Source: an uncultured Candidatus Rokubacteria bacterium (lineage in GTDB: Bacteria > Methylomirabilota > Methylomirabilia > Rokubacteriales > DASRDR01). Taken from it: 12,663 nucleotides of DNA. The notes under the pieces were generated by a model. It had not been told where the DNA came from and ran no database searches. It saw nothing but the letters and a program-made list of their open reading frames with translations. Position numbers and translations under genes: made by a program. Within the stretch, counting starts at the first letter, position 1. Each line of letters begins with the position of its first letter. The stretch lies in the NCBI GenBank assembly GCA_963708025.1, contig CAVPSB010000039.1, positions 1-12,663 of the forward strand, written 5' to 3'. Positions 946 through 12,613 of the stretch are shown piece by piece.

Positions 946-1424
946 TCAGTGCATCTTCGCCGGCATGATCGACGGGCCCTTGTGGTCGGCCGGGAGAATT
1001 TCGAAGAGGACGTGGACCATGGGCGCGTCGGTCTTGTTTTGAGCGGTGTGAGTGACGTCGCCCGACTCGAAGAAGAAGTCGCCGGGGCCGTAGACCAGCG
1101 TCTTGTCGGGCAGGACGTAGGTCATGTAGCCGGAGGTGACCTGGCGGATGCCGGGGCCAGCGTGGTGATGCTCGCCCACGTAGCCGCCGGGCTCCAGGAC
1201 GAGCTCCGTGACCCTCAGCTTGTACTTGCCGTTGAGCTCGGTCAGGTATCCGGACAAGGCGCTCTCGAACTTGATCTTGGCGGTGAGACCTTTGGTGTCC
1301 ACCCTGACGGCGCTCCCGCCGGGCGTCTGGGCGGCGGCCGGGCGGGTGCGCCGACCAGGGCCAGAAGGGGAAGTGCCCCGAGAGCCTGGAGAAGATCGCG
1401 CCGGGTGGTGTCCACGTTTGCCAT
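946..1424 (-). CDS. Cupin-domain protein with twin-arginine (Tat) signal peptide (one frameshift near 1345)
   Basis: ATG at 1424 with SD-like AGGGAGGA (complement of 1431-1438). N-terminus MANVDTTRRDLLQALGALPLLALVG...AAAQ has TRRxLL, a hydrophobic stretch and an AxA site. Cupin motifs LEPGGYVGEHHHAGPGIRQVTSG and PGDFFFESGDVTHTAQN. TGA at 946-948. Confidence 0.85.
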
Positions 1425-1500
1425 GGTCGCTCCTCCCTGTTCGAGCGGGTCCGATGCCTTGGTGACCCACCCGGAGCGTGAGCACACGGCTCGGGGCGGG

Positions 1501-1521
1501 CCAGTACAATTAGCGAACCGG
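1501..1521. promoter_or_regulatory. Candidate HxlR operator (imperfect palindrome) overlapping a -10-like TACAAT
   Basis: ccAGTACAattagCGAACCgg is an AT-richer island with dyad symmetry CC(A/G)GT(A/T)C(A/G)-N5-(C/T)G(A/T)AC(C/T)GG. It lies in the divergent cupin/regulator gap. TACAAT is at 1505-1510. Confidence 0.5.
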
Positions 1522-1548
1522 GCGTCCGCGCGGGCTCGAGGTGCCGCC

Positions 1549-2267
1549 ATGTACCTGTACGGCCAGTACTGTCCCGTCGCCCGAGCCTCGGAGATCCTCG
1601 CCGATCGCTGGACGCCGCTCATCGTCCGCGAGTTGCTCGCCGGGCATCCGTCGTTTCAACGATCTGGACCGCGGACTCCCGGGCATCTCGCGTGCCCTCC
1701 TGGTCGAGCGACTCCGTCGACTGGAGCGGACGCGCATCGTCGAGCGACGCGCGGACCGCGACGGCCGCGGGGTCGAGTACCACCTGACCCCCGCCGGCCG
1801 TCAGCTGCAGCGGGTCATCGACGTCCTCGGCGGCTGGGGGGCGCGCTGGGCGTTCGGCGATCCACGACCGCATCGAGCTGGATCCGGTCGTGCTCCTCTG
1901 GTGGATGAGACGGCGGGTTCACCGGCATCGCCTGCCCGCGCGCCGCATGGTGATCCAGTTCGACTTCCGCGGCGAGCGGACCGGCAGCTACTGGCTCGTC
2001 CTGGAGCGTACCGACGTGTCGGTCTGTCTCCAGCACCCGGGGTTCGACATCGATCTCCGGGTGACCGCGGACATCGATGCCTTCTACCGGGTGTGGCTCG
2101 GTCGGATCACGCTGGACGAGGCGCATGCGCCGGGCCGGGTGCGCCTCGATGGGATGCCGGCCGTCATCCGCGCCTTCCCGCACTGGTTCGCCTGGAGCCC
2201 GATGGCGGATGCGGTCCGCGCGGCCCTCGCCACGCGCTCGACGGTCGCGGCGGCCGCGTCGGGGTGA
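1549..2267 (+). CDS. HxlR-family winged helix-turn-helix transcriptional regulator with C-terminal SCP2-like domain (two frameshifts)
   Basis: Stitched: MYLYGQYCPVARASEILADRWTPLIVRELLAG / IRRFNDLDRGLPGISRALLVERLRRLE...VEYHLTPAGRQLQRVIDVLGGWGARW (classic HxlR signature) / ELDPVVLLWWMRRRV...VIQFDF...YWLVLERTDVSVCLQHPGFDIDLRVTAD...F..VWLG. Shifts near 1643 and 1870. TGA at 2265-2267. Confidence 0.9.
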
Positions 2268-2305
2268 GCAGGCCATCTGCCGCTCCGTTTCGCGACCACT
2301 GCCCA

Positions 2306-2378
2306 CTCCGAGCCGCGGCTTCGCCGCCGCCACCGACGGGGGGGCATCGGGGGGGTCTTCCGATACCCCCCGATAGCT
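2306..2378 (+). repeat. Dispersed intergenic double-hairpin repeat, copy 2 (could double as a bidirectional terminator)
   Basis: ctccgagc, then gcggc-ttc-gccgc hairpin, then caccgacgggggggc, then atc-G7-t-cttccgat-a-C6-gat hairpin (2346-2374), then agct. It lies between the convergent regulator and livF stops. Confidence 0.65.
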
Positions 2379-2379
2379 C

Positions 2380-3105
2380 CTAGCCGCGGAGGGTCTTCAT
2401 CACCTCCGCGTTGTCGAGGGCGCTGCCGGGGCTTCCCTCGAAGATGATCTCGCCTCGGTCGATCGCGTAGAGCCGGTCCGCGACCCGCGCGGCGTTCGCA
2501 GGTTGGACTCGGCGATCAGGAGCGAGATGCCCATCGCCTTGATGCTCTTGACGGCCTCGATGAACCGGCTCACCACGACCGGCGCCAGCCCCTCGAAGGG
2601 CTCGTCGAGGAGCAGGATGGACGGCGAGAGCGTCATCGCCCGGGCGATCGCCACCATCTTCTTCTGGCCGCCGCAGAGGTGCAGCCCTCGCCGGTCCAGG
2701 AAGCTCCGGACCTCCGGAAAGACGGCGAAGACCCGCTCGTCAGGCGTCTCTCGGCGGCCGGCCGGCGCCCGCTGGCGCCGGCCGGCCAGCCACCGGCTGA
2801 TCTGGAAGTTTTCCGCCACGGTGAGGTCGGGGAAGATGCCGGCGTCCTCGGGGGCGTACCCGATGCCCGAGCCGGGCCCGCTCGTGGGCCGGCAGCCGGG
2901 TGATGTCGCGGGCCGTCGAGGGTGATCGCGGCCCGCGCGCGGCGGCAGCAGCCCCATGATGGTGTCGATGGTCGTCGTCTTGCCCGCGCCGTTGCGGCCG
3001 ACCAGGCACACCGCCTCGGCGTCGCGGACGCCAGCGACACGCCGCGGAGGATGTGGGCCGGCCCCCGGTAGGTGTTGATCCGTCGATCTCGAGCTGCGGG
3101 CGAGC
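2380..3105 (-). CDS. livF: Branched-chain amino acid (LIV/HAAT)-type ABC transporter ATP-binding protein, LivF-like (frameshifted)
   Basis: INTYRGPAHILRGVSL / AVCLVGRNGAGKTTTIDTIMGLLP (Walker A) / GIGYAPEDAGIFPDLTVAENF / L(C)GGQKKMVAIARAMTLSPSILLLDEPFEGLAPVVV (signature and Walker B) / ...NAEVMKTLRG* with TAG at 2380-2382. The start is approximate. Confidence 0.88.
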
Positions 3106-3878
3106 GGGTCGCCTCGGCTCCGGCCAGGAGCGTCCCGATCAGGGTCGGCGTCACCTGCTCGTTGACCGGCGGATCTGCGTCGGGCGTGCCGTCGGCCAGG
3201 ATCGTGCCCTCGTGCATCACGACGATCCGGTCGGAGTACTTGAAGACCACGTCCATGTCGTGCTCGATGATGACGGCGGTGATCGCCCGGAGCGCACGAT
3301 GGCGGTGATGATGTCCATGATCGGGGCCTTCTCCCGGGTGCTGACCCCGCTGGTCGGCTCGTCCAGGAAGAGGAGCTTGGGCCGGAGCGCGTAGGCCACC
3401 GCCACGTCCAGCAGCTTGCGCTCCCCCTGGGAGAGCCCCCCCGCCGCCACCCGGGCCCTTGCCGTCGAGGCCGAACTCCCGCAGGACCTCCATCGCCTCC
3501 TCGCCGCACGGCGGCGTCGTGGTCGGCCAGGGCGAACAGGCGCCGGGTCTTGCCCTCCCGGGAGAAGATGGACAGCGCGACGTTGTCCAGCGTGGTGAGC
3601 TGGTCGAACAGGTTGACGAGCTGGAAGCTGCGGCGCGATTCCCGCCGCGATCCGCTCGTGGACCGACTGGCGGTGACGTCGGTGCCCTGGAAGACGATGT
3701 GGCCCCCGTCGGGGCGGAGCAGGCCGCTGATCAGGTTCACCAGCGTCGTCTTCCCGGCGCCGTTGGAGCCGATGAGCGCCAGCAACTCGCCCTGCTCGAC
3801 CGGGAAGTCCACGCCGGTCGACGGCGTCGCATGTCGCCGAAGTACTTCGTCAGGTTCTTGGTCTCGAGCAGCGCGCAC
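3106..3878 (-). CDS. livG: LIV/HAAT-type ABC transporter ATP-binding protein, LivG-like (frameshifted)
   Basis: LLETKNLTKYFG / GELLALIGSNGAGKTTLVNLISGLLRPDGG / RSFQLVNLFDQLTTLDNV / LSQGERKLLDVAVAYALRPKLLFLDEPTSGVS / IIEHDMDVVFKYSDRIVVMHEGTILADGTP. GTG start at 3878, immediately after the livM stop. The 3' end is approximate. Confidence 0.88.
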
Positions 3879-3880
3879 GC

Positions 3881-4873
3881 TCAGGTCGTCCGCCGCCGCC
3901 TGAGGAGAGCCGGCTGGCGGTGCCGACGATGCCGGTCGGCAGCGCCAGCACCAGGACCACCAGCACGACCCCCAGCACCATCTGCCAGTACACGGTGTGG
4001 CCGACCGCGTAGGTCTCCAGGTAGTTGTAGACGATGGCGCCGACGATCGGTCCCGCGAAGGTCTGGAAGCCGCCCAGCACGGTGAAGAAGACGATCTTGC
4101 CGGAGAAGGTCCAGTGCAGGATGTCCGGGGTGGTCAGCCCGTTGAGCGGCACCCACAGGACGCCGGCCAGCCCGGTGTAGACCCCCGAGACCAGGAAGGC
4201 CACCCAGCGGTAGCGCCGGACCTGGACCCCCACGAACTCCGCCCGGGTCTCGTTGTCGCGGATGGCCTGGAGCGCCTTGCCGAACGGCGAGTGCACGATC
4301 ACCCACATCACGCACGACGCACACGGCGAAGAGGACCAGGACGTAGTAGTAGTAGCGGTGGGCCAGGAAGTCAGCTTGTCCTCGGTCTTGCCGAAGGCGC
4401 GTGGACGAGCACCGCCGAGCAGCGTCGGCGTCGGCACCCGCAGCCCGTCGGTGCCGCCGGTCACCCAGAAGAACTTGAAGGCCAGGCTCCACAGCACCTG
4501 GGACAGGGCCAGGGTCAGGATGCCGAAGAAGATCCGGGTGTAGCGGACGCAGACGAAGCCGAAGAGGGCGGCCAGCCCGGCCGAGGCCACCACGCCGCCG
4601 GCGAGGAAGACCTCCATCGACGTGACGCTTCAGGTACTTCACGATGAACGCCACGGCGTAGGCCCCCATCGCCGAAGTAGGCCGAGTGGCCGAACGACAG
4701 GAGGCCGGTGTAGCCGAGGAGCAGGTTGAAGCCGAGCGCGGCGATCGCGAGGATCAGCCCGTAGGAGAGGCAGCACCGTCTGGTAGGGCGGGATCACGAA
4801 GGAGGAGCCGAGCAGGACGAGGAGGATCGCGCCTCGCCCAGAGGACAGGCCGGCGGGCGAGGGCGTCGGCCAT
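3881..4873 (-). CDS. livM: LIV/HAAT-type ABC transporter permease, LivM-like (frameshifted)
   Basis: LILAIAALGFNLLLGYTGLLSFGHSAYF, IFFGILTLALSQV, VTGGTDGL, SPFGKALQAIRDNETRAEFVGV, FLVSGVYTGLAGVL, VLGGFQTFAGPIVGA, LPTGIVG. ATG at 4873, TGA at 3881-3883. Confidence 0.88.
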
Positions 4874-4881
4874 GCGGCGGT

Positions 4882-5779
4882 TCACGGCGCGCCCGAGGAG
4901 GCCGGCCGGCCGGACTCAGGAGCACGACGGCCGCCATCAGGTAGAGCACGGCCAGCTCGATCTCCGGGAAGAAGGCGATGCCCAGCTCCCGCACGATCCC
5001 CACCATGAGGGCGCCGAGCAGCGCGCCCTCCAGGCTCCCGAGCCCGCCGATGACCACGACGACGAAGGCCAGGATGAGGGCGTCCACGCCCATGCCCAGC
5101 ACGGCGCCCTGCTGGGGCACGATGATGGCCCCGCCCAGCCCGGCCATGAAGCAGCCCAGCGTGAAGGCCTGGACGTAGACCCGGTTGACGTTGACGCCCA
5201 GGGCCGAGGCCATCCGCATGTTCTGGGAGGTCGCCCGCAGGATGACGCCGAACTTGGTCCTGTAGACGAACGCCCACAGGACCGCCGCGGCCAGCGCCGC
5301 CCGACGACGATGACGATGAGGTTGTAGGTCGGGTAGATGGACTCGCCGATCGAGAGGCTGCCCGGCGGCCTCGTAGAGCGCGCTGGCCGAGAGCGGGTCG
5401 GTCCCCAGATGAGGCGCATCAGGTCGTCGAGGATCAGGAGGAGGCCGAAGGTGATCAGGAGCTGGTACTCCTCCGCGCGCTTGTAGAGCGGCCGGAGGAG
5501 CGTCGGCTCGAGGACGGCGCCGAGCGCGGCGGCGGCGACGGCGCCGACCGGGAGGAGGAGGTAGAGCAGGGGCTCGGCGTCACGCTCGCGGCGTAGCTCC
5601 CGCCGAGGCGCCCGGCCCACCGCCCACGCGGTCACGTAGGCGCCGAAGGCGTAGAGGTTGCCGTGGGCCAGGTTGACGATCCGCATGACGCCGTAGATCA
5701 GGCTCAGCCCGCCGGCGATGAGGAAGAGGACGGAGGCGTAGAGCAGCGAGTTGAGGAGGTGGATGAGCAGGGTGTCCAT
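4882..5779 (-). CDS. livH: LIV/HAAT-type ABC transporter permease, LivH-like (frameshifted)
   Basis: MDTLLIHLLNSLLYASVLFLIAGGLSLIYGVMRIVNLAHGNLYAFGAY, QLLITFGL, TKFGVILRATSQNMRMASALGVNV, AFVVVVIGGLGSLEGALLG, RPAGLLG. ATG at 5779, TGA at 4882-4884. Confidence 0.9.
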
Positions 5780-5782
5780 CGG

Positions 5783-8105
5783 TCGTACGGCGACGTCCAT
5801 GGCGGGAGCAGGCGGGATCTCGGGCGGTGCGTGGTCTGTCGCCCGTCCACGACCAGCGTGACCGGCCGACCGTGTAGTCCCGGCCGGGCGTGGCGAGCCC
5901 GCGGAGGTCGCCGCCGACAGGCGCCGGCCGGCCGAGGTAGGCGGGCCAGCGCCGGTGCCGGCGGCGACGCGGCCGTCGGGCGCCGACCACCACGTAGCGG
6001 CACTCGGGAAGGTCCGGCGCTGTCGAGGTCGGCGGTGCGCAGCGGCTCCCGCGCGATCGCGTACGTCGCGCTGGAACTTCCGCACCACCTCGACGTCGGC
6101 GTGGACCTCCAGCCGCTCGCCGCGGCCCGCGGCTCGACGCCGGGTACGCGCGGCGGGGGATGCGCGTAGCGGTCGTAGGAGCCGACGCCCAGCGGGTAGG
6201 TGAGGTCGCGGAAGACCTCGAGCGACGACGACGTCGCTCCGACCAGCTTTCAGGCGGTACGGGCCGTTGGTGACGAGGAGGTGTCCGTGCTGCCCGGTAG
6301 AACTCCCGGAGCGCGGTCCAGCGCTCGCGCGGCCTCGTCCGGGCCGTGACCAGGAGCGCCGAGGGCGGCCGGGATCGTAGCCGCCTGGCGCCGAGCTCGT
6401 CGACCAGCGGGCGCGCAGGCGTGCCCGAGCGTGCCCGGGTCGCGGACCAGGTCCAGCCAGGGGACGCCGCCGCCGTGCGGCCTCGGCGGCCGAGAAGGCC
6501 CCGAGGCCGCGCCGGACCGCCTCCTCGGCGAGGACCAGGACGGTCCAGGGCACCGGGCTCCAGGGCGGGGTGACCGAGGCCGCCTGCTGCGGGTCGCCGG
6601 CCAGGCGGTGGCGGCTGTAGACCTCGATCGTCTGGACGACCGAGGTGAACCTCACCTCGCCGAACTCCCGCTCGGTCGCGTCCGACGCGGAGGACCCGGA
6701 GCCCCGGCCAGCCAGTCGCGGAGGCGCGCGGTGGCGGCCTCGACGGCGGGATCGTGCTCGCGCCGGGCGCACGGCCGCGCCCCAGCGGTAGGCGAAGCCG
6801 AGGGCGTAGAGCGTGTCGGCCACCGTCATCCGGGTCCCGTCGTGGAAGGCGGAGGTCGAGCACCCGGTAGACGATCCGGCTCCGCGGCGGTGCGCCGCCC
6901 TCGCCGACCGGGCCGCCAGACCCCCGTGCCCGGCTCGGGCAGCAGCGCGTCCTTCGGCACGGCGAGGCCGCCCTCGAGGCCGCGGTCATCCGACGCCACG
7001 GTCACCCGGTTGCCGATCCAGCTCGCGCTCCCGGGCGCCGGGAAGAGCGCCGGGATCGCCGAGCGCGGCCCAGACCAGGCGGCCGGCGGGATCGGTGAAG
7101 CCGCCGACCGGGTTCCAGGCGGCCCTGGCCCGGGCCGGCGATCCCGAGCCGCAGCCAGCCGTTCCAGGGGAAGTCCTTGAGCTTCACCGTCCGCACGAAG
7201 ATCGGCGAGTCGAGGCCGGTCCTGGGCGTCGGCGGCCGACGTTCTCGATGCCGGTCGGAGAACTCCGGCGTTGTATACCTCGCGGCGCGTGCGTGTAGCC
7301 GACCACGACCCGCTCGCAGCCCTCGAGGAGCCGGCGCACGAGCGCGCGCTCGAGGTCGAGGCGCTCGACGGCGCCGGGGGAGTCCGCCGTCGGTCAGCCG
7401 CTCGCAGCAGGTCGCCGGCGTCCTGCGCGCCGCGCGGGGTCGGCGAGACGTCGGCGGCGAGGAGCGGTACGCGTGGAACCAGCCCGCCTTGATCCACGGC
7501 GGCCAGCCGCCGTCGGACCGGGGCGCGAGCAGGTCGCCGAGCGTCGACCGTCTCCAGGGTCGCGTCCCAGTCGGCCGGCCGACGCCGGCACCCGGCGCGG
7601 CCACGAGCCGCTCGGCCATCGCCCCCACCGGCGCGCACGCGCGAGGGGCGCGGGCCCACCGGCCGGTCGCGGTCGCGGGCCCGGGCGACCTCGACGAGGT
7701 CGGCGTGGTGGAGGTAGTCGGCGTGGTAGGGGGTCACCGGGTAGGGGTGAAAGACGTAGCCCGGCACGTCGGTGGCCAGCGCCGGCAGCAGCGCGCGGGC
7801 CGGCGCGCAGCGGGCCGCCGCGTCCCGCCACGGCGGCCCCGGCCGGTGTCGAAGCGTCAGGACCACGTACGCCGGCGAGGGACTCGATCGTCTTGACGTG
7901 GCCGGGACGGCGCCCCGGCGAACGGGTCGGCGCCCACGTAGGCGTGGAGGTGGTTCTTCTCGAGAAGCTCCGCCCGGGCGCCGTGGGTCTCGATGCGGAT
8001 CTCCTGCGGGTAGAACGACGGGTAGAAGGAGAGCTCGTGGCCGGCGCCGGCCGGCATCGCCGCCAGGACGCCGGCGCCGAGGAGCGTGGCGAGGAAGCGC
8101 TTCAA
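5783..8105 (-). CDS. Large (~770 aa) exported protein of unknown function with family-5 solute-binding-protein-like motifs (heavily frameshifted)
   Basis: TTG start with signal peptide MKRFLATLLGAGVLAAMPAGA, then GHELSFYPSFYPQEIRIE. Protein-like blocks in changing frames: GYVFHPYPVTPYHADYLHHADL, PPWIKAGWFHAY, LDSPIFVRTVKLKDFPWNGWLRLG, WNPVGGFTD, FHDGTRMTVADTLY, PPWSPVPWTVLVLAEEAVRRG, HGHLLVTNGPYRL, FRDLTYPLGVGSYD, PECRYVVV. The 3' end is approximate. Confidence 0.7.
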
Positions 8106-8117
8106 GGTGGCGACGCG

Positions 8118-8153
8118 ACGGCGGGTCCGCGCCAGGCCGGCCGGACCCGCCGT
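8118..8153 (-). terminator. Intercistronic stem-loop downstream of the substrate-binding protein gene (mRNA stabiliser or partial terminator)
   Basis: Perfect 12-bp inverted repeat acggcgggtccg (8118-8129) / cggacccgccgt (8142-8153) with a 12-nt loop. No U-tract on either side. Confidence 0.7.
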
Positions 8154-8174
8154 GCGCGAGCAGAGGAACCCGGC

Positions 8175-9559
8175 CTAGGAGACCTTGGGCCAGGTCTTGT
8201 CGATCCAGGTGTAGGTCGACGTCGGCTCGCCCTTCGGCCACTCGGGCGGCGCCGTGATGTTCCGGATCGGGATCGTGATCATCCGGTTCGGGTCGAGCAT
8301 CTGGAACTGGTACTCGGGCAGGTTCATGCTGAACCCGGTCACCGCGTCCTTGTAGGCCTGGTGGTTGTCCGGGCGGAAGTAGACGTAGCCGGCCGGGCCC
8401 GCCATGCCGAGGTTCTCGAGCTGGCTGATGATGGCGTCGTCGTCAGGCCAGCCGCCGGTCAGCTTGTTCGCCCGCTCGATGGCCATCTTCAGCATGTGCA
8501 TGGCGACGTAGGCGCCCTCGGCCTGGAAGTTCGGGTACTCCTTCCAGCGGTCGTAGTACTTCTTCACGAAGGCGTCGTTGATCGGCCAGCGGCTGTTCGG
8601 CGGGAAGTTGAAGTAGTAGTTCGAGTGGACTCCCGCGATGACCCCCTCGGGGTGGTCCTTGCCGATGGCGTGGGGCGCCACCCCGAAGGCGATCGTGCTG
8701 GCGAACTTCATCTTCTTGAACAGGTCGTAGCGGAGGGCCTGCTTGTAGAAGGCGACGTAGTCGCCGCCCCACACCGACGAGACGAGCAGGTCCGGCTTGG
8801 CCGAGATCGCCTTGGTGATGTGGGAGGTGAAGTCGGTCGTGCCGAGCTTCGGCCAGCCCTCCGACACCACCTCGACGTGCCCGGGATCAGCTTCTTGATG
8901 GCGACCGTGAAGTGGTCGAAGGCGTTCCGGCCGTAGGAGTAGTCGGGATGGATGTGGGCGATCTTCCGGCACCTTCGGCCACGTCAGGGCGATGGCGACC
9001 GCGCAGGTGACGCCGTCCGCCGACTGGATGTTGGTGATCCGGAAGATGTAGTGGGGATTCGGCACCGCCTTGTCGAAGAGGAAGTCGGTGCACCCGTCCA
9101 CGAAGATCGTCAGGAGCTTCAGCTCCTCGGCGACCGGACCGAGGGCGGGCGTGTTGCGCGCTGGAGGTGATGCCGGTGAAGAAGTCGATGTTCTCCGAGA
9201 GCTTCATCCGCCGGAGCTCTTTGACGTTGGCGTCGGTGCCGGCGGTCTCGTCGGCCTTGAGCGTCTCGATCTTTCGCTTCCCCAGGAGACCGCCCTGCGG
9301 CGTTGATCTCTTCGGCGGCCAGGATGTGCCCCTTGTACATGGGTTCCCCGAGGACCGCCGCCGGCCCGGAATGGAAGGTCATGTGGCCGACCTTGAACGG
9401 CTTGTCGGGGATGTTGCCCTTGGGCTGGGCCGGGGTCTGCGCCTGGGCCAGGGCCGGAGCGGCCAGGGGCGCCGCCGCGCCGGCGGCCGCGGCGCCGCCC
9501 ACGGTCACGCCCAGGGTCTTCAGGAAGTCTCGGCGACTCGGACCGGGTTGCTCCGCCAT
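8175..9559 (-). CDS. LivJ/LivK-like (type I periplasmic-binding fold) ABC substrate-binding protein with Tat signal (frameshifted)
   Basis: ATG at 9559 with GGAGGA SD. MAEQPGPSRRDFLKTLG matches the Tat consensus SRRxFLK. Further blocks: FKVGHMTFHSGPAAVLGEPMYKGHILAAEEINA, FFTGITSS, HYIFRITN, IAHIHPDYSYGR, WPKLGTTDFTSHITKAISAKPDLLVSSVWGGD, FVKKYYDRWKEYP. TAG at 8175-8177. About four indels (near 9297, 9160, 8968, 8880). Confidence 0.9.
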
Positions 9560-9709: not shown

Positions 9710-10810
9710 ATGAAGGCTGCCGTCCTGCCCGCGGTCGGGGCTCCGCTCGCGATCGAGGAGATCCCCGCGCCCAGGCCGCGGACCGGCGAGGTGCTGCTCC
9801 GGGTCCGCGCCTGCGGCGTCTGCCACACCGATCTCCACGTGATGAAGGGAGAAGTCCGCTTCCCGGTCCCCGCCGTGCTCGGTCACGAGGTCTCCGGCCT
9901 CGTCGAGGCGGTGGGCCCCGGGGTCACCGGCCTCGAGGCCGGCGCCCCGGTGGTGGCCTCGTTCATCATGCCGTGCGGGCGCTGCCGCTTCTGCGTCGAA
10001 GGGCGGGACGATCTCTGCGAGCCGTTCTTCGCGCTGAACCGGCTCAAGGGCGTGCTCTACGACGGCGAGAGCCGGCTCCAGCGCGCCGACGGGAGCCCGC
10101 TCGCCATGTACAGCATGGCCGGGCTGGCCGAGTACTGTGTGGTGCCGGCCACCGACGTCTTCCGCGTTCCGGCCGGGCTCCCGCTGGAGGCGGCCTGCAT
10201 CCTCGGCTGCGCCATCATGACGGCCTACGGCGCCGTGACCCACCAGGCAGCGCTCCGCCCGGCGGAGACGGTGGCGGTCGTCGGGACGGGCGGGGTCGGC
10301 TCCAACGTGATCCAGCTCGCGCGCGTGGCCGGCGCCGCCCGCATCATCGCGGTGGACGTCCGGGCCGAGAAGCTCGAGGCGGCCCGGGCGCTCGGGGCCA
10401 CCGACGGGGTGAACGCCGCGGCCGGCGACGCCGTGGCGGAGGTCCGGCGGCTGACCGGCGGGGAAGGGGTCGATGTCGCCTTCGAGGCGCTGGGCCGGGC
10501 CGAGACGGTGGCCGCGGCGTTCCGCATGGTGCGGGACGGCGGCCGCGCCGTCGTCATCGGGATCGCGCCCGGCCAGACGGCGGCGCCGATCGAGATCACG
10601 CACCTCGTCCGGCGCGGGATCCGGCTCCAGGGCTCCTACGGCGCCCGGGTCCGCCGGGACATGCCGCAGCTCATCGCCCTGGCGGCCAGCGGCCGCATCA
10701 GCGTGACCCAGCCCATCACGCGCCGCTACCGGCTCGACCAGGCCGAGGAGGCCTACCGCGCCCTCGACCGCGGCGAGATCACCGGCCGCGCCATCGTGGT
10801 CTTGGATTGA
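9710..10810 (+). CDS. Zinc-dependent alcohol dehydrogenase (MDR superfamily), 366 aa, intact
   Basis: SD GAGGAGG upstream. Catalytic Zn motifs CGVCHTD and GHE. Structural Zn motif CGRCRFC-x7-C. Third catalytic ligand region LGCAIMTAYGAV. Rossmann motif GTGGVG. Asp in IIAVD suggests an NAD(H) preference. Confidence 0.95.
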   Translation: MKAAVLPAVGAPLAIEEIPAPRPRTGEVLLRVRACGVCHTDLHVMKGEVRFPVPAVLGHEVSGLVEAVGPGVTGLEAGAPVVASFIMPCGRCRFCVEGRDDLCEPFFALNRLKGVLYDGESRLQRADGSPLAMYSMAGLAEYCVVPATDVFRVPAGLPLEAACILGCAIMTAYGAVTHQAALRPAETVAVVGTGGVGSNVIQLARVAGAARIIAVDVRAEKLEAARALGATDGVNAAAGDAVAEVRRLTGGEGVDVAFEALGRAETVAAAFRMVRDGGRAVVIGIAPGQTAAPIEITHLVRRGIRLQGSYGARVRRDMPQLIALAASGRISVTQPITRRYRLDQAEEAYRALDRGEITGRAIVVLD

Positions 10811-10897: not shown

Positions 10898-12613
10898 CTA
10901 ATGCCGGCAGTCCCAGTAGGTCGCAACGAGGTCAATATACGGCGGTATCAGCTGGGGCGGAACCTCTGCGTCGTCAGTCGCCACCAGACGCGTTTCCAGC
11001 AGCTGATACTCCGAGGTTTGCCAGCGAACGCCGAACAGCCGGCAGGTCCAGAGAGTTTGACTGGGCGGCGCAGGCGGAGGGACCTCAAGCGGGCACGGCA
11101 CGAAGCCGCCGGCAACGGCATCGTCTTCCTGACCGAGCTGACCCCGGAATACGAGGATGCACCGCGTGGTCGGCGGCGTGTCGATTGGCAGCCGCTGGAC
11201 AGGAACGGCCGTGCTCTGCCCGCGGCTGAGAGAGAGCGACCAGCTCTGCCGGAACGTTCGGGTGCCGTCCTCCGGCTCGACATACAACGCGAAGGTGCCG
11301 TTTACGTCTTCGTCGGGCGAGCCATTGACGACCGTGAAGGTGCGAATTCGGACGTCCTGGGGGTTTTGCTCGTCGGTTGCCGCTATCGAGCCGCGGAAAA
11401 AGTAGTCGATGAGGGCGGCTGAGTAGCCGACGGCGCGGGGGAGGAGGAGGGCGCCGAGGTCCTCGGTCACCTTTTCGTCGATCGTGGAGTTGCGGGCCTG
11501 GATGGCCTCGGGAAGGTAGTCGTAGAGGGCGCCGGGAAGGGCGAGCCGATAGTGGCGCGTGGCGCCAGAGAGCTCCGTGACGTTGGTGTCGCCGTGGCGC
11601 GCCTTGAGGAGGTAGCGGCGCTGCCCGCCCCACGCACCGGGGGCGGGCTCGAGGGGCCCAAGTTCCATGCTCTGACCCGACGGGAAGGGGATGACGCCGA
11701 ACAGGGCGGGCTTGTCAGCGAAGATGGTGTTGTTGCTGAAGAAGTTGGCGTTGGAGTACTCGGCCAGCCCGATGACCGGACGCCCATCCGGCGGCGTCGC
11801 CGTCACATCGGGATTGGTGCCGTCGTACTGCCCGGTGTCGATGAGCCCCGAGACCGGGGAGGGAGCGCGGGACCGGTCGATCCGCGGAGACGTGCCGATC
11901 CGGGAGAATACCCGCTCCGACGGCCGAACGGTCGGCCGATCGAGGAAGGGCGCCAGTTCGGAGGGTTTGCGCTTGTCCACCCACCGCTCATAGCGATCGG
12001 GGTCGCCGAGGTCCAAGCCCAACACCACCTTGTAGAGATGAGGTCCGTTGCGCGTATGAGCAGGGAGCGAGGCGTCCTGGACGAGATGCATCACCTGGCC
12101 GAGGGAGCGGAACAGCTTCGCGAAGGCGATCTTACGGTCGCTCTCGGCCCCTGAGGTGAGGGCTTCGAAGTAGGCTTGCCTGGCGACCGGCCACGACCAC
12201 GTTCCCGAAGCGCCACCAATGCCTTCGCTCTGCCGTGTATTTTGCTGCCAGATGACCGAGGATTGGCCCGGCTGAATGCCGACAACGCGAAGGCCGGCCC
12301 CACTCCAAGTCGTCGCGAGCGGGTTGTGAAAGTGATTCACAACACGGACGTCTGGCATGTCTTCGCGCTTCGCACCCTCCTGAAGCCACTCACGGGCCGT
12401 CAGATTCTCGCCGTCGCTCCTAAAGAATTCATTGAAGCCGTCCGAGAACCCGAGACCTTCTTGAGAACCCGGTCAACGGTCGAGTCGATACCACCAACCG
12501 CACGCTGCGTGATCGCAGCGTGAGCGGCGAGGTCGTACGCCGATGCTTGGGGAGTCAGCAATCGGAAGCGAAGTCACTACGACAAATGCCAGCGTCGTCT
12601 CTATCCGTCTCAC
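10898..12613 (-). CDS. Secreted protein with zinc-dependent phospholipase C / P1-S1 nuclease-like N-terminal domain and uncharacterised C-terminal region (two 5' frameshifts)
   Basis: GTG at 12613 after GGGAGA. Stitched N-terminus: MRRIETTLAFVVVTSL / LLTPQASA-YDLAAHAAITQRAV...DRVLK / EGLGFSDG...EWLQEGAKREDMPDVRVVNHFHNPL, joining the 486-aa ORF 10898..12358. That ORF contains LGQVMHLVQDASLPAH and YERWV. Shifts near 12562 and 12461. Confidence 0.72.

Follow-up and report, generated by a model that had tools for sequence, protein, structure and literature searches.

What is a large protein with the sequence hallmarks of one class of binding protein doing inside the operon of an importer that normally uses another? 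The question is raised by a 12,663-nucleotide stretch of contig CAVPSB010000039.1 (NCBI GenBank assembly GCA_963708025.1, uncultured Candidatus Rokubacteria bacterium), referred to throughout as the window, in which the genes of an ATP-binding cassette (ABC) importer of the Urt/Liv type (HAAT) are accompanied by a gene of ~2.3 kb, here named gene X, lying between the gene for a type-I (Peripla_BP_6) binding protein and livH. Known Liv/Urt (HAAT) systems consist of five components, and their receptors are of one fold. From the comparison of sequences and of predicted structures, and with confidence that stands about evenly for and against, X is proposed here to be a sixth conserved component of this importer, an accessory receptor subunit that would have a permuted family-5-like body. 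The X-containing importer is found mainly in Rokubacteria/Methylomirabilota.

The original prediction of a large gene between the LivK-like gene and livH was borne out, as all of the peptides quoted for it were present on the minus strand and the neighbouring genes were identified by Pfam as described. The six peptides (FYPSFYPQEI near 8025, FHPYPVTPYHADYLHH near 7750, KLKDFPWNGWL at 7184-7152, WNPVGGFTD near 7120, FHDGTRMTVADTLY at 6847-6806 and VTNGPYRL at 6274-6251) are spread across the three minus-strand frames, and a plot of third-position G+C displayed an unbroken coding signal from ~8105 down to ~5800 with a frame switch every 30-200 bases. The window has a G+C content of 65-77%, the region of X being its richest part, and ordinary tblastn of homologues yielded long spurious off-frame alignments; protein-to-DNA alignment allowing frame jumps was used instead and was run with two intact homologues, P0001 (709 residues) and P0007 (741 residues). 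With P0001, 523 of 703 aligned residues were identical (74%) over window positions 8057 to 5819, with 36 frame breaks (29 of +1 nt and 7 of +2 nt) and no in-frame stop; with P0007, 493 of 718 were identical over 8099 to 5839, with 33 breaks and again no stop. The read-through product is colinear with intact homologues of 710-780 residues, the closest having 74% identity. Because it reads through as one protein without stops, repair of the frame does not split the region into unrelated small genes, and the expectation of a single large periplasmic protein was upheld. When the raw in-frame pieces of X in the window were compared with Pfam, no hits were obtained; comparison with plasmids gave a single unrelated 67-nt match for the X region (blastn) and no match for P0007 (tblastn).

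Gene X starts with TTG at 8105 and ends just before the livH ATG at 5779, its stop codon being obscured by the indels, and is separated by ~70 nt from the binding-protein gene upstream, whose stop lies at 8175-8177. The leader is consistent with a Sec-type signal cleaved by signal peptidase I, after which mature X would begin GHELSFYPSFYPQEI; X is indicated to be a secreted protein of ~720 residues. The leaders of the two periplasmic proteins differ, that of the type-I protein being of the twin-arginine kind and that of X of the Sec type.

A search with an in-frame stretch of X returned 65 homologues (E<=1e-3) of 379-930 residues, all of which are named 'hypothetical protein' at source. Chance is excluded as the cause of this similarity by its scores, a 141-residue stretch of X giving 164 bits (E = 8.8e-43). 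A profile of 40 full-length homologues (A1) matched 7fi3_A, an archaeal OppA, with an E-value of 3.4e-21, profile positions 333-622 being aligned to residues 22-296 of the chain (290 positions) with both the FHDG and the GPY motifs included. An AlphaFold2 model of homologue P0007, computed from the A1 alignment, was obtained with a mean predicted local distance difference test score (pLDDT) of 88.0 and a predicted template modelling score (pTM) of 0.88. When the full model was compared with the PDB using Foldseek, 7fi3_A was again the best match (4e-15, 20% identity, root-mean-square deviation of 4.1 over 304 columns), followed by NikA, AgaA, LpqW, AccA, DppA, AppA and OppA; in all, 40 PDB hits at E<=1e-3 were obtained, each over ~300 columns and mostly family-5 proteins, with TM-scores that are low (0.2-0.5) because the matches are partial. 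In the ESM Atlas, the family is represented by eight 'hypothetical protein' clusters, and SBP_bac_5 was found in 22 of 30 neighbours. Sequence profiles and the model together indicate that X is a remote homologue of the family-5 (cluster C) solute-binding proteins to which a beta module has been added. The family itself is large: a profile of the N-terminal lobe matched 510 representative clusters at 50% identity in an exhaustive search, the best 150 matches of which were members or fragments of the family only, with no link to ordinary family-5 proteins.

The order in which the parts of this fold occur in X is likely to be a swapped one. The core half of X, at residues 300-630, matches the N-terminal half of family-5 binding proteins and carries FHDG and GPY; in X it is found after, rather than before, a lobe that aligns to NikA 322-521. 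The lobe in question (first 291 mature residues; alignment A2, 44 loci) was modelled separately with a pLDDT of 86.6, and Foldseek returned 119 PDB hits at E<=1e-3, all of them, among those listed, family-5 proteins (NikA, LpqW, DppE, AccA and OppA types), with NikA first (6e-7; TM-score 0.41-0.51 when normalised on the query). Using hhalign, residues 177-291 of the lobe were aligned to NikA 413-521 of 524 (P 0.05) and residues 10-41 to NikA 322-353 (P 0.44), whereas FHDG and GPY of the core half were aligned to NikA 95-110 and 182-192, respectively (P 0.005 each). The two matches of the lobe to NikA are colinear with each other and in reversed order relative to the core half. The template for these alignments contained five sequences, namely E. 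coli NikA, DppA and OppA and two family-5 open reading frames (ORFs) from the loci; a search with the A3 profile to enlarge it produced only NikA orthologues of 83-100% identity, the two family-5 ORFs being those present in the loci. Against a template of the three E. coli sequences, only the GPY region was aligned at an E-value of 0.005, and the lobe at 0.35. Internal duplication was not detected, the two halves of X being dissimilar by hhalign (P 0.5).

A circular permutation, in which the two halves of the family-5 fold are exchanged, is therefore the likely description of X on the combined profile and model evidence. In such an arrangement, the invariant KLKDFPWNGW...WNP segment would be where the counterparts of the canonical C- and N-termini are connected, with new chain ends created near the hinge. 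The C-terminal beta module has no significant match in the PDB or Pfam. The original prediction had taken FHDG and GPY as hallmarks of family-5 binding proteins; the motifs do match, but the domain order appears permuted and a further module follows.

Invariant or near-invariant in X are KLKDFPWNGW, WNP, FHD...D, PPWSxVPW and RW, as well as H...GPY, RD...P...G, the motif HPYPVTPYHxDYLxHxD and two cysteines, the last two features being carried by the N-terminal lobe, where both cysteines are invariant. The mature N-terminus, G-H-E-x-x-F-Y-P-x-x-Y-P-x-E (window 8042-8000), is also near-invariant, with His2 present in 44 of 44 and 45 of 45 sequences; its pLDDT is below 50 in both models and it is predicted to be disordered. 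A free N-terminal Gly-His is similar to peptide ends known to bind Cu/Ni.

Features of the window, with positions on its forward-strand numbering. Lobe boundaries within gene X are approximate because of the indels.
Feature	Position	Strand	Basis and remarks
Gene X, large periplasmic protein of an unnamed family	5783..8105	minus	Frameshift-aware alignment to P0001 and P0007; motifs
Predicted signal peptide of X, 21 hydrophobic residues ending AGA, then GHE	8043..8105	minus	Read from the sequence; GHE conserved
N-terminal lobe of X, mature residues ~1-290, matching the C-terminal lobe of family-5 proteins	7185..8042	minus	AlphaFold2 model, Foldseek and hhalign
Core half of X, KLKDFPWNGWL/WNP via FHDGTRMTVAD to GPY, with enlarged domain II	6141..7184	minus	Profile hit to 7fi3_A; hhalign
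C-terminal all-beta module of X, ~110 residues	5783..6140	minus	DSSP on the AlphaFold2 model: strands only, residues 630-741
Type-I (Peripla_BP_6) binding protein, twin-arginine leader (SRRDFL), conserved C-terminal tail	8175..9559	minus	Pfam 1.9e-29; 388/448 identical to L002 orthologue; 4 indels
livH/urtB-like permease	4880..5779	minus	BPD_transp_2; 256/290 identical to L002 orthologue; 4 indels
livM/urtC-like permease	3900..4790	minus	BPD_transp_2; 250/285 identical to L002 orthologue; 4 indels
livG/urtD-like ATPase	3134..3871	minus	ABC_tran; 202/242 identical to L001 orthologue; 7 indels
livF/urtE-like ATPase	2383..3082	minus	ABC_tran; 187/230 identical to L002 orthologue; 4 indels
Zn-dependent alcohol dehydrogenase	9710..10810	plus	75% G+C; reads through unbroken
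ORF of 486 residues without Pfam match	10898..12358	minus	Unbroken; third-position G+C 0.81, coding-type
Cupin_2-domain ORF	946..1509	minus	
Frame with HxlR-type regulator domain	1541..2383	plus	

The place of X in its operon was examined by scanning one genome per species, which gave 374 loci with a relative of X, and the best 80 of these were fetched and used for all locus counts; the six genes were mapped by phmmer with the proteins of locus L008 as queries. Assemblies labelled Rokubacteria/Methylomirabilota account for 57 of the 80 loci, the rest being labelled Casimicrobiaceae, Kiloniellaceae, Acidiferrobacterales, Armatimonadota, Dormiibacterota, Actinobacteria and others. Two Rokubacteria-type operons (L022 and L051) are labelled as coming from the ammonia-oxidising archaea Nitrosocosmicus and Nitrosotalea and are probably binning errors. 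Directly upstream of X, on the same strand, all 70 testable loci have the Peripla_BP_6 gene, and 68 of 74 have livH as the next gene downstream; the other six comprise five with the order livH-livM-livG-livF-SBP-X (SBP, solute-binding protein) and one cut off at the SBP gene. No locus examined has X apart from the type-I protein or outside the cluster; homologues of X thus keep the place named in the original prediction, between the genes resembling livK and livH, or else follow the livK-like gene immediately. By hit coordinates, the gap between X and livH is 19 nt at the median and -21 nt at its smallest, and such tight spacing or overlap suggests co-production with the permease. Among the six operon genes, which were those mapped, the ones flanking X in the 80 loci are never of the OppBC/DppBC permease type, which also agrees with what had been predicted.

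Beyond the six genes the neighbourhood varies, and includes an amidase (7 loci), an acyl-CoA synthetase-type protein (10 loci), a carbamoyltransferase (6 loci) and also a flavin adenine dinucleotide (FAD) monooxygenase. No conserved metabolic neighbour was found among the 80 loci, the clusters of neighbours beyond the two largest occurring in at most 10 loci each; the two largest were rejected, as they are probably antisense ORFs over conserved genes.

The make-up of a HAAT system, that is a Peripla_BP_6 receptor, two BPD_transp_2 permeases and two ABC_tran ATPases in one operon, was found by Pfam in the window and in L008, and the five-gene set recurs in all 80 loci within the limits of the available flanks. 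A sixth gene, encoding a protein of another fold, is present in 80 of 80, so the operon departs from the rule of five components and one receptor fold. At the nucleotide level the whole operon (2382-9538) is colinear with related loci at ~75% identity, the similarity ending at the operon edges. The assignment to a LIV-type importer made in the original prediction holds as regards the HAAT gene set but requires qualification, since the transporter parts score closer to the Urt than to the Liv models of NCBIfam and reach the cut-offs of neither; with the L008 orthologues, the scores and cut-offs were 88.7 and 492.75 for UrtA, 168.6 and 250.3 for UrtB, 152.5 and 296.2 for UrtC, 191.3 and 304.1 for UrtD, and 196.3 and 285.8 for UrtE. 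Among solved structures, those closest to the type-I protein are structural-genomics entries without a name (E-values of 2e-24 to 1e-11), urea-binding proteins ranking lower. This protein ends in a highly conserved Pro/Thr/Trp-rich tail of ~30 residues (8175-8270; ...TSTYTWIDKTWPKV) that extends past the part to which most solved homologues align.

Outside the operon, the window carries a Zn-dependent alcohol dehydrogenase gene and an unbroken ORF on one side and, beyond the end of livF, the Cupin_2-domain ORF and the frame with the HxlR-type match on the other. The latter match covers residues 44-113 of a 289-residue stop-to-stop frame, which is therefore probably not a true gene over its whole length.

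A second form of the X module was encountered as partial X-like hits after livF in four of the 80 loci (L075, 13335-18081; L011, 9676-13932; L077, 10582-14857; and L066, 8755-9825). In L075, the first ORF encodes a secreted protein equivalent to the first half of X that ends after an NRV motif, the second a secreted protein of 134 residues with weak, sub-threshold matches to cupredoxin-type domains (E-values of 0.005-0.24), and the third a protein of 934 residues in which a polytopic membrane domain is fused to the second half of X. Within the membrane domain there is an insert rich in Cys, and its mature form would have His as the first residue. Proteins as long as the fused type (868-930 residues) make up 17 of the 65 homologues, and the membrane domain was seen in the two that were read, P0047 from a cultured species of Bradyrhizobium, a genus that also encodes P0054, and P0337 from L075; the latter split paralogue matched 7fi3_A at 4.4e-7. 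In addition, five proteins of 351-383 residues found in the exhaustive search correspond to the N-terminal half only and share an end point after an NRI/NRA motif, as does the first half in L075. No match in Pfam, NCBIfam or the PDB was obtained for the membrane domain found in split paralogues, and its sole label is an automatic one in the ESM Atlas, 'fenitrothion hydrolase family', on which the abstracts found were uninformative. As read from sequence, the X module is a single protein in HAAT operons, whereas elsewhere it is divided in two, with one part attached to a membrane protein.

As an accessory receptor subunit, X would bind something periplasmic in the cleft of its two-lobed body, either a solute or solute complex that the type-I protein cannot capture alone, or a part of the type-I protein itself. 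It would act beside the LivHM-like permease together with the type-I receptor, so that uptake would need, or be tuned by, two unrelated periplasmic proteins. A membrane-proximal role is suggested by the split paralogues, where a polytopic membrane domain carries the second half of X and the first half is made as a separate secreted protein.

The same fusion would also suit a role as a scaffold or tether, which we regard as unlikely; X would then have no solute ligand itself but would use its second half and beta module to sit on the permease, and would hold or recruit the type-I protein. It might do so, for example, by clasping the conserved tail of that protein in a peptide-type cleft, and the effect would be either to raise the local concentration of the receptor or to gate its docking. 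In keeping with this, the SBP-X gene pair is never separated, even where it has moved behind livF, the conserved tail of ~30 residues is mostly not covered by solved homologues, and the fold family of X typically binds peptides. However, no fusion of X longer than 1298 residues was found, SBP::X fusions included, which is weak evidence, and the many invariant His, Asp and Arg residues would fit a small-ligand site as well.

A bolder extension of the accessory receptor proposal, which we consider unlikely, is that these operons represent an ABC importer class of a new kind, in which two periplasmic subunits of unrelated structure would both be obligatory and a permuted family-5 module at the permease would relay with the type-I receptor. 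The module would then either clasp the conserved C-terminal tail of the type-I protein or capture a metal-ligand complex, the latter option being suggested by the invariant free N-terminal Gly-His, the conserved His/Asp motifs and the cupredoxin-like neighbour in the split paralogues. The existence of a two-piece form, one part of which is permanently joined to a polytopic membrane protein of different origin, would make the module a portable periplasmic receptor cassette. Conversion of the binding-protein fold into a periplasmic, possibly metal-dependent enzyme that frees a small molecule for import by the type-I protein is improbable, for although the near-invariant His/Asp-rich motifs (HPYPVTPYHxDYLxHxD, the G-H-E mature N-terminus and FHD) and the amidase, acyl-CoA synthetase-type and carbamoyltransferase genes that flank some loci would agree with it, X has no similarity to any enzyme family, its structural neighbours at probability 1.00 are all binding proteins and these flanking genes are not conserved across loci.

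Several results weigh against X being an accessory receptor with a permuted family-5-like body. The gathering score of PF00496 (SBP_bac_5), 32.4 bits, was reached by none of 16 homologues, five of which were matched below threshold (P0012 best, with 25.6 bits and an E-value of 8.4e-6; the other four with E-values of 0.001-0.05). The family-5 relation claimed in the original prediction is thus supported by the 7fi3_A profile match, Foldseek and the ESM Atlas neighbours but does not extend to passing the Pfam cut-off. In these 16 homologues no other Pfam gathering score was reached, and no NCBIfam model matches the family. At the sequence level, the N-terminal lobe profile is without significant match in the PDB or Pfam, and the mapping of the lobe consists of the marginal hhalign P-values obtained with the five-sequence template and of Foldseek matches given without aligned ranges. 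To our knowledge, no family-5 protein docks on BPD_transp_2 permeases. X also evolves faster than its partners, with a mean column identity of 57% against 78% for the type-I protein and a nonsynonymous substitution rate (dN) two to three times that of the partners, the synonymous rate (dS) being saturated; its dN/dS ratio of 0.36-0.57 is not interpretable, as synonymous sites are saturated or constrained by G+C. Synteny is covered by the 80 best of 374 loci and the context of the split form by four. Finally, the reading of the indels as errors has against it their very uneven spread, as none occur in the gene for the Zn-dependent alcohol dehydrogenase or in the 10898-12358 ORF.

This unevenness bears on whether the window's copy of X is expressed at all. 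If the operon here, and X above all, were a cluster of real pseudogenes, the indels would be genuine and X would make no protein; in favour of this, the 7.2 kb of the operon contains ~59 indels, whereas the next two genes to the right, 2.6 kb in all and one of them of the same G+C content, contain none. The distribution of the X indels relative to homopolymers points the same way, 9 of 36 lying near a run of at least four bases (background 0.16), and a homopolymer explanation was rejected. However, the five neighbouring ABC genes are also broken (see the table), read through without a single in-frame stop, as X does, and retain 81-88% identity to their orthologues, the value for X being 74%. 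One-base insertions are far more frequent than other changes (29 of 36 in X), and an excess of these is the pattern of a noisy long-read consensus and not of bacterial gene decay. The same operon is likewise fragmented in several related public assemblies of the group (L012, L037, L057 and L080). Because the neighbours are broken in the same manner, without stops and at high identity, and because one-base insertions dominate, the 33-36 indels of X are most likely errors of a noisy assembly or consensus, and decay is a distinctly unlikely cause.

Receptor-dependent ABC importers are described in textbooks as pairing one receptor fold with one permease family. If the proposal is true, a strictly conserved operon in which a Liv/Urt-type translocator goes together with a permuted OppA-like protein would depart from this pairing and suggest that the binding-protein fold has an accessory role not recognised so far. 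The X family is sizeable, as the 510 clusters and 374 loci attest, and typical of Rokubacteria/Methylomirabilota, which are abundant uncultured soil bacteria whose nutrient uptake is known from annotation only; without a Pfam or NCBIfam name, it currently escapes annotation pipelines. If real, a naturally permuted fold that also occurs in two pieces would be of interest for the engineering of binding-protein biosensors. For transporter biologists the relevance of X is tempered by the poor sequence quality of the window's copy.

Among known systems, 7fi3 (Thermococcus kodakarensis OppA) is the only solved protein with clear sequence homology to X. Both contain FHDG and GPY at a long spacing of ~180 residues; in 7fi3, however, the shared region forms the N-terminus and is followed by ~430 residues, whereas in X it is preceded by ~310 residues and followed by the beta module of ~110. 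By its entry name, 7fi3 belongs to a dipeptide/oligopeptide system, and X to a BPD_transp_2 (HAAT) operon. In the titles and abstract openings found on the 7fi3 protein, on permuted binding proteins and on Rokubacteria transporters, nothing on this architecture appears.

The other family-5 (cluster C) proteins, NikA, DppA, OppA, DppE and AccA, resemble both halves of X at the level of the fold and share the FHDG and GPY motif matches. Relative to these canonical proteins, X scores below the PF00496 cut-off, appears to have its halves reversed, carries the extra C-terminal beta module, is ~200 residues longer and is flanked in the 80 loci by no OppBC/DppBC-type permease genes. LpqW of mycobacteria is among the best structural matches of both models, with no sequence similarity detected. 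It has the family-5 fold without being a transporter receptor, and offers a precedent for the use of this fold beyond solute delivery to an Opp-type permease; it differs in having the canonical domain order and in not being encoded in an ABC operon. With LivJ/LivK-LivHMGF and UrtABCDE, the X operon shares one Peripla_BP_6 receptor, two BPD_transp_2 permeases and two ATPases, but it differs from these in its fixed sixth gene of another fold and in missing all Urt and Liv equivalog cut-offs widely. Taken together, the searches and models indicate that X is a rearranged member of the binding-protein superfamily and that its operon encodes a six-gene HAAT importer.

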